Shown: one piece after another, positions 58,859-63,818 of the stretch
How the letters are laid out: every line of letters starts with the position of its first letter
Position numbering within the stretch: position 1 is the stretch's first letter
Virus record (IMG/VR): IMGVR_UViG_3300037261_000110
Reading direction: 5' to 3' (one strand)
Source of the DNA: a virus
Taxonomy: Duplodnaviria > Heunggongvirae > Uroviricota > Caudoviricetes
Length of the DNA: 64,000 nucleotides
The notes under the pieces: model-generated
The model's database searches: none
The model's input: only the letters and a program-made list of their open reading frames with translations
Told to the model about the DNA's origin: nothing
Position numbers and translations under genes: made by a program

Positions 58859-60669
58859 ATGGACGACAGTGAAGGACCTGATCCGGCGGTAGACGCGATC
58901 AAGCTATTGAACGATCGTGGATATTTCATCACCAAGCGTGAGAATCGCTACGATCGTCACGATATGGTCAAGCGCTGCGGCATGCTCCGTGCCGGTGCGC
59001 TACTGATCGCCGGCTACAAAGTTCGCGATCCAGAGACCGGTGAATGGAGTAAGCTTCAAATTCACATGACCTATGACAACACTGTCATGGCTGTCATGGA
59101 AGAAGAAAGCGCCAAGCTGTTCGCCCGCTTCGTCAGTGACAACATAATGCCAACCGAGCGCGAACTGAAAGCAGCAAGAATCAAGGCAGCGAGAGACCTG
59201 CGTGATTGGTTCCGCGCTTTTCCTCTTAACCCTGGCGACGGACATGCCAAGATTCTAGCAGACATGCTGGAAGCCTGTCTCCAAAATCCAGTGGTGCTCT
59301 GATGTGGCGCTGTGAATATGTCGGCGAAGACCCGCTTCTGTTCGGTCGCGAAGGTTGGGCAGATGTCGGCGACAGTGACGAAACGGTCAGAGTCAAGTTC
59401 GATGGCGAGACCGAATGGGGGATTTTTCAGCGCAGCGAGATCGACGACATCGAGCACGGCAGATAATGGACCCGTTTCGTGAAATCTACGATCTTCTCTC
59501 CGGTCGTGCCATGCGCGCGCCGCAAATCGATCTCGATCGCAGCTACATTCCTTACTTCAAGGATCAAAACGAAAAGATCAAGGAGCTGACGCGCGCGTTC
59601 GTCCTTGGCGTCGAGTGCAACGGCTGCATGGCGTCTGATCACGTCATCAAGTGGATCGGACAGGTGATCGGCTTTGGGGAAATGCCGAACAACCACGGCA
59701 CCTATGCAGAAATACGCATTCTGAAGAAAGATGCCAGCGGCGACATTCGCGACGAAGATATCGGTCGACTCTTCGAAGCTGTTGCCGACAGTAGTCTTCA
59801 GTTCATCGTACCTGGATTGTTCATAAGGTATTACTGATGTACGGCATCTTTTGGTTTTTCTTCGCATGACAACCAACAAGGAACAGTTATTCCGTCGCAT
59901 GCAAAGTGCGTACGAGTACCAGGAAAGCTACCACCTGGATAGTTTAGAGGTTGGAATCGTAAAGTGGGCGCTCCACGATTCGATCGAGCTTGACGAACTG
60001 AAGAAGCAACGTGACGAAGCAGCTCAAATCGAGCGTGACAAGAAAGCGATGGGATAAAATGACACACAATGGAGTAAAAAAAGTCGCGGCAGTAGAAGCA
60101 CGCGACATGGTAAAGCAGGCTGGCGAAATCCGCTTGAAGAAAGAAGAAGCCGCCAGAGTGCTACAGGAGAGAACCGAGCGCATGCAAGCCAAGCGTTTCT
60201 ACGAGCATGAGCTACCCAAGCTGATCCGCAAGGAAGCTGCTCTTGAACAAACGGCGATCGTCCTTCCGATCCCCGACGACTCGGACTTCTACTGCGAAGA
60301 ACTATCCAGGCTAGCGGAGATGGACGGTTTTCAAACCAACCGCCTTGTCGAGAAGCATTGCCTTGCACTACAGATCGGCTGGTACGAGTGATGGCAGAAC
60401 CACACGAAAATATTTGGATCGATAGTGAGCACTACGCACAGCTGGAAGGCGCGCGCTGGCATGTCTATGACAGCGCACGCAGAGGACTGTTCGCTATCGA
60501 TTCAAAGGACCTACCTTCCTACAAGGGAGATATCCTCGCGCCAATCTTTCGCCATTGTCTTGGCGTCTATGCCGTTGGTGTAAGAGACGGCAAGCGCGAA
60601 GGCGAGCTGAGCGCAAAGAAGCGCATGTGCGAGGCGATCGGCGCCGCACTTGCAGCGGGAGCGCAGTGA
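58859..60669 (+). CDS. Run of hypothetical ORFs (58859-59302, ~59415-59837, 59851-60057, 60011-60391, ~60391-60669)
   Basis: Same-strand ORFs with RBS and overlaps. Confidence 0.5.
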
Positions 60670-61040
60670 TGACAAACCTTTTCCAATCCGGGATGTTCAA
60701 GCTAGCATCTGGCACCGTGTCTCGGTTCAAGATCGAATGCGACGCCTTGACACCGAACGATTGGGAAGCGCTCGCCGAGCAAATTGCCAATCGCTGCGAA
60801 GAGTTCGGCGCCGTGCTTGGCGTCCCGACCGGCGGAGAGCCACTGGCGGAAGCTCTGAAGGGGTACAGGTCGCGTGGCGCGCTGTTGGTGGTAGACGACG
60901 TGCTGACGACCGGCGACAGCATCCTAGCCACGCTCAGACACCACAGGAACTATCTTGGCGGCGTCACCGGATGGGTTGTATTCGCCCGTGGACCTTGCCC
61001 TGCCGGCGTCCATGCTCTATTCCAGATGGCGCCGATCTGA
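60669..61040 (+). CDS. Phosphoribosyltransferase (orotate PRTase-like)
   Basis: FKLASG...FKIEC, GVPTGG, LLVVDDVLTTGDS PRPP-binding motif. Confidence 0.75.
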   Translation: MTNLFQSGMFKLASGTVSRFKIECDALTPNDWEALAEQIANRCEEFGAVLGVPTGGEPLAEALKGYRSRGALLVVDDVLTTGDSILATLRHHRNYLGGVTGWVVFARGPCPAGVHALFQMAPI

Positions 61041-61258
61041 TGTACCTCGAAGACGCTCTGCGCCACCTACGCGCCCACGAAGGCGACTACGCCCGTCGAT
61101 GGGCCTGGAAGCCGCTCACCTACGTTTTTTTCTATCCAGGCGACGAGCACCTTCTGTCGTTTCTCGCGGTCTCAACTCCGCAAGGGACCGCACCGTGGAC
61201 ACCGACGCGCTGCGATATGATGACAGCTGATTGGTATGTGAGAGAGAAGAGTAAATGA
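61040..61258 (+). CDS. Tad2-like (DUF2829 / Thoeris anti-defence 2 family) protein
   Basis: EDAL..L.......RR..W...Y......W.PT..DM...DW pattern, 72 aa. Confidence 0.6.
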   Translation: MYLEDALRHLRAHEGDYARRWAWKPLTYVFFYPGDEHLLSFLAVSTPQGTAPWTPTRCDMMTADWYVREKSK

Positions 61259-61579: not shown

Positions 61580-61957
61580 ATGCTAGATTGTCTTATCGTC
61601 GGAGATAGCATTGCCTTCGGTGTCGGCTCGGCGATGCACGAATGTCAGACCAACGCGAAGGTTGGCATTCCTTCCGCCGCCGTTGTCGATCGAGCTGCGC
61701 CGGCAAAGGTCATGGTGGTGTCAGCGGGATCGAACGACCCGCGCAATCCGAATCTGAGGACCAACCTCGAAGCGATACGGTCGAAAACTCCTGGCAAGGT
61801 GATCTGGATACAGCCGCAGGACGCGACCGCGCGCGCGATCGTCATCAGCGTCGCCACAAGGCACGAAGACGCGACTGTGGGGTTCGTCGCCGGCAGCGAT
61901 CACGTCCATCCAAAGTCGTACGAGGAGCTGGCAGCTTCAATTCGCCGGCTGAAATAA
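61580..61957 (+). CDS. SGNH/GDSL hydrolase-like protein
   Basis: IVGDSIA, SAGSND, D.VHP. Confidence 0.7.
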   Translation: MLDCLIVGDSIAFGVGSAMHECQTNAKVGIPSAAVVDRAAPAKVMVVSAGSNDPRNPNLRTNLEAIRSKTPGKVIWIQPQDATARAIVISVATRHEDATVGFVAGSDHVHPKSYEELAASIRRLK

Positions 61958-61990
61958 AACCAAAGCGCCCGCCGAGGGACGAGCGCTTTG
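61953..61990 (-). terminator. Terminator (T-tail on the - strand)
   Basis: CAAAGCGC/GCGCTTTG stem followed by GTTTTATTT on the - strand. Confidence 0.6.
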
Positions 61991-62023
61991 TGCCAAACCG
62001 GTAGTGTGGAGAAGATATGTGAA

Positions 62024-62134
62024 CCGTAAGCCCTCAAACAACCAAGGACACTTCAGGTTAGCAGCACGGTTCCACGCGCTTTTCGCTTCCAGTTTCCTGG
62101 TTGCTTAGCTGACCCTACACCTTGCACTCGCCAT
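62024..62134 (-). ncRNA. Structured RNA motif, copy B (unidentified)
   Basis: Aligns block-for-block with copy A; compensatory stem changes; GAAA tetraloop. Confidence 0.7.
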
Positions 62135-62203
62135 CCCGCGTACGCCCGTGAGGGTAGTACATTGCTTTCGGAAAGGTCTATGCTAGTTCGTCAAATTTCT
62201 GCT

Positions 62204-62313
62204 CCGTAAGCTAGCAAGCAACCGCTAACACTTCAGACAGTCGGCACGGAGCCACGCGGAGTTAATCTACGTTACCGCAGACCCTAGACTGTCCTACTTC
62301 CAGCACTCGCCAT
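62204..62313 (-). ncRNA. Structured RNA motif, copy A (unidentified)
   Basis: ATGGCGAGTGC...GTAGG-stem...CGCGTGGnnCCGTG..stem-CTGAAGTGT..GGTTGYTT..GCTTACGG; GTAA tetraloop. Confidence 0.7.
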
Positions 62314-62397
62314 TTCAGGAACACCATTTCTGGCTTTCATTGCTTCTGATAAGGTCTGTGCTAATTCAAGTCCGCCGCCTCTCTGTTTCGATGTCCC

Positions 62398-62425
62398 AAG
62401 CTACCACACCCCAAACGCCTGTCAA
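62398..62425 (-). promoter_or_regulatory. Promoter for the non-coding unit
   Basis: TTGACA-N16-TAGCTT. Confidence 0.55.
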
Positions 62426-62631
62426 CAGAAAAAGCGAGAAAAAAGTGAGAAAAAAAATTAGCCAGCTAATTCAGCACGATAGCGTAGGCAGGCTCGCGGA
62501 GATGCAGCGCGACGGCAGGCTCGTCGACCTGTTTTTTGGTGCCGGCGTGACCATCTTCTGCGTCTGCGGATGGGCGGCTTTGTGCGTTTTCTTCGTCCAT
62601 ATGAGCCACGTAGCAGCGATCGGAGTTTCAC

Positions 62632-63259
62632 ATGCCGGACTATGACGAAGACCTAAGATCGAGGCTCGCTCCTACTTTATCTGCATGGCGTGATGCGTCT
62701 GTCGTCGGCTCGAATTTCGAGCAACAGATAGAGCTGAGCACCGGTAGATGGCGCCACCGCCCGCGCATGACGTTTGCCATGCCTGGATGGGAACCGTTCC
62801 ATGAATCAATCCACCAGCACCCCGACGACGGTTGGCGTTATGGACCAGCACCAAAGTGACGACGAGCTTGTCGAGCTGTTAGCTCGTACAATCTCGCCGT
62901 ACGGCTGGCGTGACGAATGGTGGAGCACGCCATCGCGCGCCGGGCAGTATCCACGCAATCAGTTGCATGTAAAAGAAAATGCTCGCGCTTGCGCTCGGGA
63001 CGTTATCAAGGTACTATCGGAGCGCGGCATTCTGCCGCTGAAAAGGTAAGCCAAAATGAGCAAGGAATGGAATGGTCACGCCGTGACCGACGTTCGTCCG
63101 GCAGTGAAGGGCGACTCCGGCTTCGATCCCAACAAGAAGCAAGTCGTCGTTGTCCTGCCCAACGGCGCGAACAAGACCGTCCTGGAGTCCGAGGTCACGG
63201 ACAAGGTTGACGACAAGCCAGCAGCCGCTGGCAAGGAGGGTGCAGCCAAAACGATGTAG
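62632..63259 (+). CDS. Three small hypothetical ORFs (62632-62859, ~62821-63049, 63056-63259)
   Basis: Coupled + strand ORFs ending at a terminator. Confidence 0.5.
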
Positions 63260-63654: not shown

Positions 63655-63665
63655 TTATTCGTTTG

Positions 63666-63775
63666 CATTCGACGCCGGCTTACGCTAGCGTCCTTTTGTC
63701 TGTGCCACCGCGTGACCCGTCGCCCACGGTGCTAGGTCTGCCAAGAACCTAGCTTCGTCCTCGCGAGCACAGGCT
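63666..63775 (-). ncRNA. Candidate structured RNA inside the tRNA array
   Basis: CTGTGC/GCACAG closing stem, GCTAGGT/ACCTAGC hairpin, GACGC/GCGTC hairpin with GTAA loop. Confidence 0.45.
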
Positions 63776-63818
63776 TGGGAGAAGTAGCAGCCAGCGAAGT
63801 TCGCTGGCTGTTGCTTTT

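Follow-up and report, generated by a model that had tools for sequence, protein, structure and literature searches.

The 64,000-nucleotide (nt) stretch of DNA analyzed here (the window) belongs to IMG/VR virus record IMGVR_UViG_3300037261_000110, an uncultured phage of ~152 kb assembled from peat, whose major capsid protein shares 62 to 70% identity with its counterparts in phiCbK-like Caulobacter and Brevundimonas phages and in a Microcystis phage. Within a gap of 670 bp, flanked by a divergent gene on one side and a convergent one on the other, it carries, on the minus strand at 61953 to 62425, an RNA unit in which two diverged tandem copies of a pseudoknotted RNA (units A and B) are bracketed on the same strand by a promoter-like motif and an intrinsic terminator, the arrangement of an independent bacterial-type transcription unit with a predicted start site (Table 1). 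We put at about 0.9 the probability that the structured RNA is real and expressed. It represents a new RNA family and is a member of no known one, although of a known and still mysterious kind. An earlier reading of the letters (the original prediction) had proposed a stand-alone minus-strand structured RNA with selection acting on its fold, and this is borne out by compensating helices and by the match of a unit A model to unit B; all of the strings that it quoted are found at the positions it gave. No gene is called inside the RNA unit in any of the assemblies.

The bracketing of the repeats by a promoter-like site and a T-tailed hairpin was likewise confirmed. A stock sigma-70 scan does not list the TTGACA-N16-TAGCTT site, because TAGCTT matches TATAAT at only three of six positions. 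The motif class TTGACA-N15-18-TANNNT, however, is found at six places in the window, all of them on the minus strand, as against an expectation of 1.7, and none of 100 shuffles contained six or more. These sites (19088, 39606, 51275, 54412, 54707, and 62398) are probably host-type promoters of the phage; one copy lies before the transfer-messenger RNA (tmRNA), at the gene start, and one before the major tail gene. The site at the RNA unit is 100% conserved across all strain variants. The terminator was found by a terminator scan and starts 30 nt past unit B, and a strain variant preserves its stem, with G:C replaced by A:U at one pair and U:G by U:A at another.

The original prediction described two direct repeats of 110 nt lying 180 nt apart. 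The two repeats are there, at an actual spacing of 178 to 179 nt, but the copies were drawn too short: a covarying hairpin and a conserved 27-nt block precede each ATGGCGAGTGC, and the units are 166 to 168 nt long. The window contains only these two copies. When a covariance model was trained on nothing but unit A and its close strain variant, it scored unit B at 90.7 bits (E 5e-22) and aligned the two with each helix matched, so the likeness of the two units is not a product of chance.

Table 1. Elements of the RNA unit and its flanking signals, in window coordinates
Feature	Position	Pairs with	Strand	Basis or remark
Promoter-like site, TTGACA-N16-TAGCTT	62398-62425		minus	Sequence; T-rich tract 5' of the site; predicted start near 62390
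Unit A (S0, P1, S2, P2, P3, P4, P5)	62201-62366		minus	Covariance model, pair counts
Unit B, ~78% identical to A, same helices	62021-62188		minus	Covariance model, pair counts
S0(A), conserved 5' block ending AAGCAAU(G)	62338-62366		minus	AAGCAAU complementary to P5 loop; two matches in window, none in shuffles
S0(B)	62160-62188		minus	Counterpart of S0(A)
P1(A), hairpin, GAA/UUC and GCCA/UGGU, GAAA loop	62319-62338		minus	Two pairs changed on both sides
S2(A), invariant unpaired AUGGCGAGUGC	62303-62313		minus	S2(B) at 62124-62134; provides AUG of 9-codon mini-ORF (open reading frame)
P2(A), 5' strand GGACAGUC	62287-62294	62235-62242	minus	8 pairs, 4 changed on both sides between A and B
P2(B)	62108-62115	62055-62062	minus	Unit B partner strands
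P3(A), 8-bp hairpin, GUAA loop	62264-62283		minus	4 pairs changed on both sides
P3(B), GAAA loop	62085-62104		minus	Two tandem A.A mismatches
P4(A), 5' strand GCUCCGUG	62245-62252	62201-62208	minus	Crosses P2, giving an H-type pseudoknot
P4(B)	62065-62072	62021-62028	minus	Unit B partner strands
P5(A), 6-bp hairpin, invariant loop GGUUGCUU	62210-62229		minus	3 pairs changed on both sides between A and B
P5(B), loop GGUUGUUU	62030-62049		minus	Counterpart of P5(A)
Invariant CUGAAGU 3' of P2(A)	62230-62236		minus	Unit B copy 62050-62056; CU pairs inside P2
311-nt contig stretch	62023-62333		minus	May be a stable processed species
Intrinsic terminator	61953-61990		minus	Terminator scan: hairpin 61990-61961, 13 pairs, 8 G-C, then U-rich tail

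Counted on the alignment of units A and B, the six-helix structure (P1, P2, P3, P4, P5, and a pairing of S0 with the P5 loop) comprises 44 pairs. Standard pairs fill 93.9% of the cells, as opposed to 26 to 38% when the partners are slid by one to three columns, and 15 pairs are changed on both sides; the covariation score is 0.432, compared with 0.198 in shuffles, and was reached by none of 500. These counts come from an alignment of five distinct rows, and the structure was derived from the same sequences. Stems P2, P3, and P5 are correct as the original prediction drew them, and the added hairpin P1 is re-formed in unit B by different pairs (GUA/UAC and CCC/GGG). Covariation supports the helices one by one; that all of them form at once we infer.

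The core of each unit is built from P2 (8 bp, GGNNNNNC with GNNNNNCU) and P4 (8 bp, GNNCCGUG with UACGGNNC), whose strands follow one another in the order 5'a-5'b-3'a-3'b, with a 2-nt linker from the P4 5' strand to the P2 3' strand. P4 thus crosses P2, making the core an H-type pseudoknot with P3 in the first loop and P5 in the third. Both helices covary, P2 with four double-sided pair changes and P4 with two between the units plus a third state, so that P4 is seen as CU/AG in unit A, AA/UU in unit B, and UA/UA in a variant from sediment. The CCGTG/TACGG pseudoknot that had only been suspected is therefore real, and it is this P4 helix. A CGCG/CGTG hairpin drawn in its place is not supported, as it is in competition with this covarying helix and shows no covariation itself.

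P4 also bears on the suggestion that a UGGN loop pairs with the NCCA ends of transfer RNAs (tRNAs). A T-box-like, tRNA-binding RNA would suit the location, 0.9 kb downstream of the last gene of a tRNA array (at least 12 genes) that shares its strand, and both units contain UGGN. In P4, however, the second G and both N positions are paired and covary through three states, and the idea therefore loses its basis; this largely refutes it. The 180-nt queries match no Rfam T-box model at E ≤10 and there is no regulated gene downstream, and we consider tRNA binding very improbable.

The claim that junctions and loops are invariant was right in part. It stands for ATGGCGAGTGC, GTAGG, CGCGTG, CTGAAGT, and the GGTTGYTT loop (GGUUGYUU in the RNA, the loop of P5 in both units), but J2/3 and J3/4 differ in sequence and length. 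The never-varying bases AUGGCGAGUGC, GUA, CGCGUG, and GAAGU are unpaired and lie around the pseudoknot junction. The GAA of CUGAAGU faces the (A/U)GUA on the 5' side, and the two could form an S-turn or loop-E motif. The complementarity of S0 to the P5 loop extends over 7 bp and is kept in both units with a single change, G:C to G:U; with no covariation seen, we offer this pairing as a possibility.

The strand is indicated by the pairs themselves. G.U accounts for 33 of the 212 cells, and reading the plus strand instead lowers the pairing from 93.9% to ~81%; the RNA is therefore read from the minus strand, as had been argued from the G.U pairs at the outset. The same property separates an RNA from a DNA-level element (protein-binding repeats, an origin, or a packaging signal), for which one could cite the tandem repeat within the 670-bp gap and the fact that three assemblies end at 62029. 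The compensatory and G.U-type changes are sensible only in a minus-strand RNA, GNRA tetraloops cap hairpins in both units, and contigs of the region are found in RNA libraries. The shared end of the three assemblies (L018, L020, and L023, one of them 152,899 bp long) lies in unit B beside a variable U/A at 62028 and is most simply an assembly break at that polymorphism, a real genome end being possible. Nor do leader peptides fare better: the two mini-ORFs exist and both have nine codons, but they lack a Shine-Dalgarno sequence, and one strain change is nonsynonymous (ACA to AUA). We see very little chance that the repeats act as DNA or as leader peptides.

Strain variation provides a second view of the fold. 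Contigs from other samples, 13 in all, were obtained via the neighboring 82-amino-acid protein and yielded two further versions of the RNA. Strain changes include C62291 to U, which turns a C:G pair of P2(A) into U:G, and a swap of G:C to C:G in P5(A) (62225 with 62214) that was seen in three runs and five assemblies. The distant sediment version, aligned to the window as a contig, has 23 differences and one gap over 311 nt. Among the 10 of its substitutions that were examined, four make up two compensatory pairs in P4(A) (CU/AG to UA/UA) and two are the same P5 swap, while three of the remaining four fall in linkers and one at an existing mismatch; the single insertion is in J2/3. Altogether, 12 distinct substitutions were examined in the two units. 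Half of them form three compensatory pairs (two in P4 and one in P5), the other half consists of one C:G to U:G change, one change at a terminal G.U pair, one at an existing mismatch, and three in linkers, and no internal pair is broken.

The RNA also stands out from its surroundings. Between two full strains the RNA core differs at four positions in ~350 nt (~1%) and the promoter at none, whereas 38 of the 201 nt (19%) of the adjacent gene for a 66-amino-acid protein differ and an entirely different gene takes the place of the left flanking one. Thus the flanks vary and the RNA between them is conserved; the RNA core is, as these comparisons have it, apparently under strong purifying selection between strains.

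About a dozen studies of peat and permafrost have metagenomes that contain DNA of the phage, and part of the RNA unit is found in two metatranscriptome runs from different studies. A peat metatranscriptome has a 207-nt contig at 62032 to 62238 with 100% identity. In a sediment run (X19), a 350-nt contig consists of the 311-nt stretch flanked by adapter on both sides, at a depth of ~10, with no other phage sequence within the 3 kb compared. From the orientation of the adapters, the first read is on the plus strand, which would mean minus-strand RNA if the library is of the dUTP type. The 5' end of such a 311-nt RNA would lie within P1(A) and its 3' end two bases before P4(B) is complete, which would make it a processed species without the terminator. 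We regard these contigs as moderate evidence for an abundant, discrete RNA of ~311 nt, giving no weight to stretches without cover in the RNA runs and not using contig depth to rank expression. The peat metatranscriptome also has a 170-nt contig inside the gene for a 75-amino-acid protein (62657 to 62826), which points either to expression of that gene in situ or to phage DNA in the library.

The sediment contig is informative about self-cleavage. A pseudoknotted core with invariant junction bases resembles small ribozymes, a ribozyme being one of the functions contemplated by the original prediction, and if each module cleaved itself the tandem transcript could be cut to unit length. The sediment contig runs unbroken through both units and ends at nonequivalent positions of the repeat, 310 nt apart as against a 179-nt period, which makes a ribozyme in each unit unlikely, though contigs cannot exclude partial cleavage. 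No ribozyme family in Rfam matches, and we give self-cleavage hardly any credence.

Searches for relatives returned no homologue outside this phage lineage. Rfam 15 (4,227 models, among them GOLLD, ROOL, ribozymes, riboswitches, T-box, Y RNA, 6S, and alphaproteobacterial small RNAs [sRNAs]) has no match to the RNA, in agreement with the remark in the original prediction that the family was not recognized. The whole window at Rfam gathering thresholds gives only the tmRNA and tRNAs, and an 801-nt region and each 180-nt unit at E ≤10 give only an Hrs13 terminator-like match (16 bits versus 52) and a 5.8-bit long noncoding RNA. DNA patterns of the conserved blocks found no true match in IMG/VR (one exact-block match, in L001, falls in a coding region), six matches in JGI metagenome contigs, all by chance and with the other blocks absent, and 119 in GTDB genome contigs, approximately the number expected by chance, none of which scores with model R2, the covariance model of the two paralogues. 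The RNA is unmatched by blastn among the INPHARED phages. Model R2 finds nothing in phages phiCbK, Karma, Kikimora, and Bambus or in Microcystis phage Mwe-JY26, only two weak matches without the core blocks in 151 Alphaproteobacteria, and nothing better than E 0.1 in the tRNA regions of T4 and T5 with filters off. Thus the covariance modeling suggested at the outset recovers unit B from unit A with covarying pairs, but no homologues in the databases searched.

The flanking proteins lead no further. Homologues of the left-flank 125-amino-acid protein (≤59% identity) are in unrelated contexts and lack the RNA, the right-flank 82- and 66-amino-acid proteins have no homologues outside their own clusters, and a flank-protein query scanned against IMG/VR gave no match. 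No homologues were found for the open frames across the RNA unit. A 59-amino-acid frame across unit B compared with 1.8 billion proteins brought up repeat proteins (P0027 and P0028) from eukaryotic satellite-like contigs, which were judged to be chance matches; one of the two has a 59-amino-acid (177-nt) period that equals the RNA repeat length, and this was judged coincidental. As far as these tools reach, the RNA family appears to occur only in a single phage lineage, found in peat, permafrost, and sediment, which limits both the covariation evidence and what may be said about function.

In our proposal, transcription by host RNA polymerase most likely begins near 62390 and ends at 61953, producing a predicted primary transcript of ~430 nt that would carry two anciently duplicated modules. 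Each module would fold into the 5' hairpin P1 and an H-type pseudoknot of P2 and P4, with the GNRA-capped P3 in loop 1, P5 in loop 3, and a P5 loop that can pair with the upstream conserved block S0. The invariant unpaired bases around the junction may provide a binding pocket or surface, and a transcript with two modules could act during infection as a bivalent decoy, sponge, or scaffold, its target being a small ligand or a protein of the host or the phage. We put the probability that the RNA works by binding in trans in this way, rather than by one of the rival mechanisms, at 0.4 to 0.45. A role as messenger, cis-regulator, or antisense RNA seems to us improbable.

Several observations pull the other way, both on the fold and on the proposed role. 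All of the covariation comes from two paralogues and close strains, because no homologue was found outside one phage species cluster, and the structure was drawn from the same sequences. Nested minimum-free-energy folds show no extra stability over shuffled sequence (z -0.36, -0.73, and 0.01), which is expected if pseudoknots matter yet offers no support. A strain change of U62028 to A drops the terminal G.U pair of P4(B), and the tally for the sediment variant covers 10 of its 23 differences, so some of the other 13 could break pairs. The metatranscriptome contigs cannot prove transcription, strand, or ends, as DNA can occur in such libraries, and the peat run also has a contig from a neighboring protein gene. 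The trans-binding step is itself pure inference.

An alternative is a base-pairing sRNA, in which invariant single-stranded blocks such as AUGGCGAGUGC are seeds for host or phage mRNAs, two per transcript, and the structure only stabilizes the molecule. Like a classical sRNA, the unit comes with a promoter of its own and ends in a Rho-independent terminator with a U tail; it also contains invariant unpaired 11-mers, and its only near-match in Rfam is the terminator of an Hfq-regulated sRNA (E 0.32, far below threshold). Complements of the 11-mer in the 64-kb window, however, are not found beyond chance, so much covarying pseudoknotted structure would be unusual for an RNA of the seed type, and the sole RNA contig with defined ends lacks the terminator tail. 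We therefore think an sRNA of this type unlikely.

Tandem riboswitch aptamers, such as those for glycine and glutamine, similarly comprise two diverged, compact, pseudoknotted modules with invariant junctions followed by an intrinsic terminator, and the RNA might be a sensor of that type, with a ligand setting termination at 61990 to 61953 against read-through antisense to the convergent gene or genes. The short distance from unit B to the terminator is in keeping with this, and beyond the terminator the minus strand contains only the antisense of a real plus-strand gene. In contrast to the known tandem riboswitches, however, there is no Rfam riboswitch match, no same-strand ORF downstream, and no anti-terminator pairing between unit B and the 5' arm of the terminator. 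Moreover, the convergent gene is exchanged between strains, from a 125-amino-acid esterase-like protein to one of 214 amino acids, while the RNA is unchanged. A sensor is, to our minds, somewhat less likely still than a seed-type sRNA.

The trans-binding RNA that we favor has counterparts in kind, though not in family. T4 encodes RNAC and RNAD (the species 1 and 2 stable RNAs), whose function is still unknown after decades (PMC3014915, PMC9697503). According to the T4 annotation these are two small RNA genes in tandem, on the strand of the tRNA cluster and at its downstream end, as here. The T4 RNAs, however, abut the last tRNA and are cotranscribed with it, whereas here four opposite-strand genes intervene and transcription would start at a separate promoter; RNAC and RNAD resemble each other only weakly (mean column identity of 63%, with many gaps), whereas the two modules are clear paralogues; and model R2, with filters off, reveals no sequence or structure homology to the T4 RNAs. 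T5 has several structured stable RNAs in its tRNA cluster (RNAI, RNAIII, RNA1, RNA2, RNA2H, RNAIV, and RNAX), some of them back to back and annotated with "unknown functions"; model R2 does not match them, and several are annotated as tRNA-like, which the RNA described here is not. What is shared with T4 and T5 is an RNA gene beside a same-strand tRNA cluster, here found in two RNA libraries, and this is likeness of kind and not family membership.

GOLLD and ROOL (RF02032 and RF03087) are ornate phage and prophage RNAs that are often located beside tRNAs, contain many pseudoknots, and self-assemble via loop contacts (PMC12286853). The complementarity of S0 to the P5 loop could in principle act in a similar manner, between modules or between molecules, but GOLLD and ROOL are single RNAs of 500 to 800 nt rather than two modules of 166 to 168 nt, and neither family matches in Rfam. 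Type III antitoxin RNAs of the ToxI type consist of tandem pseudoknot repeats that bind a protein, and a pseudo-ToxI encoded by a phage can serve as a decoy (PMC3475682). Each ToxI repeat measures 36 nt, and the repeats are near identical, cut to unit length by the toxin, and located directly upstream of the toxin gene, whereas the units here recur every 178 to 179 nt, are 78% identical, and are apparently not cut at equivalent sites. A type III antitoxin (ToxI, CptI, or TenpI, with repeats of ~36 to 45 nt) was accordingly rejected, the units being too long and too diverged and lacking a same-strand ORF downstream; no type III toxin Pfam domain occurs in the neighboring proteins.

Large lytic phages have long been known for stable RNAs near their tRNA genes, as in T4, T5, and the GOLLD and ROOL carriers, and none of these RNAs has an established job. 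The RNA described here is known from one uncultured phage lineage, which is its limit, but it is small enough for structure work, supplies its own covariation through internal duplication, is under apparent purifying selection, and is visible in environmental RNA. If its binding partner were found, the purpose of this whole class of phage RNAs could be revealed.

The genes around the unit place it in a strain-variable accessory region. The convergent gene (61580 to 61957, plus strand) codes for a 121- to 125-amino-acid SGNH/esterase-like protein with real homologues, and in assemblies L016, L017, and L019 its place is taken by an unrelated 214-amino-acid protein without Pfam hits; the region around it looks like a hot spot for accessory genes. 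A 72-amino-acid Tad2-like gene (Thoeris anti-defense 2, PF11195, 32 bits) lies on the plus strand at 61040 to 61258, ~700 nt from the RNA gene and directly 3' of a gene for a 123-amino-acid phosphoribosyltransferase-like protein (60669 to 61040). Tad1, Tad2, and Acb2 are protein "sponges," and an RNA counterpart can be envisaged: a two-site aptamer made in bulk that soaks up a host defense component, be it an immune signaling molecule or a defense protein. The compact pseudoknot with its invariant junction bases, the lack of an attached expression platform or downstream gene, and the location in the accessory region close to the Tad2-like gene are compatible with this reading and do not demonstrate it, and we hold it to be a long shot. 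Were it true that the partner is a defense component or signaling molecule, the RNA would be a new type of anti-defense agent.

On the other side, four small plus-strand genes (66, 75, 82, and 67 amino acids) lie between the RNA unit and the tRNAs. The first codes for a predicted membrane protein (62445 to 62645), divergent from the RNA promoter, and its 38 nucleotide differences between strains amount to 20 amino acid differences; the three genes that follow it have zero to one amino acid difference. The original prediction called the RNA antisense to all flanking genes, and this is correct for the protein genes, but the tRNA array and the alphaproteobacterial two-piece tmRNA of the phage are on the minus strand, like the unit itself. 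The tRNA array runs past the end of the window (3516 to 6145 in contig L011, corresponding to window 63316 to about 65945) and includes Trp, His, Met, two Glu, Gly, Ser, three Arg, Cys, and Pro tRNAs. It has gaps of 200 to 450 nt, for example at 63660 to 63815, that might contain further RNAs.

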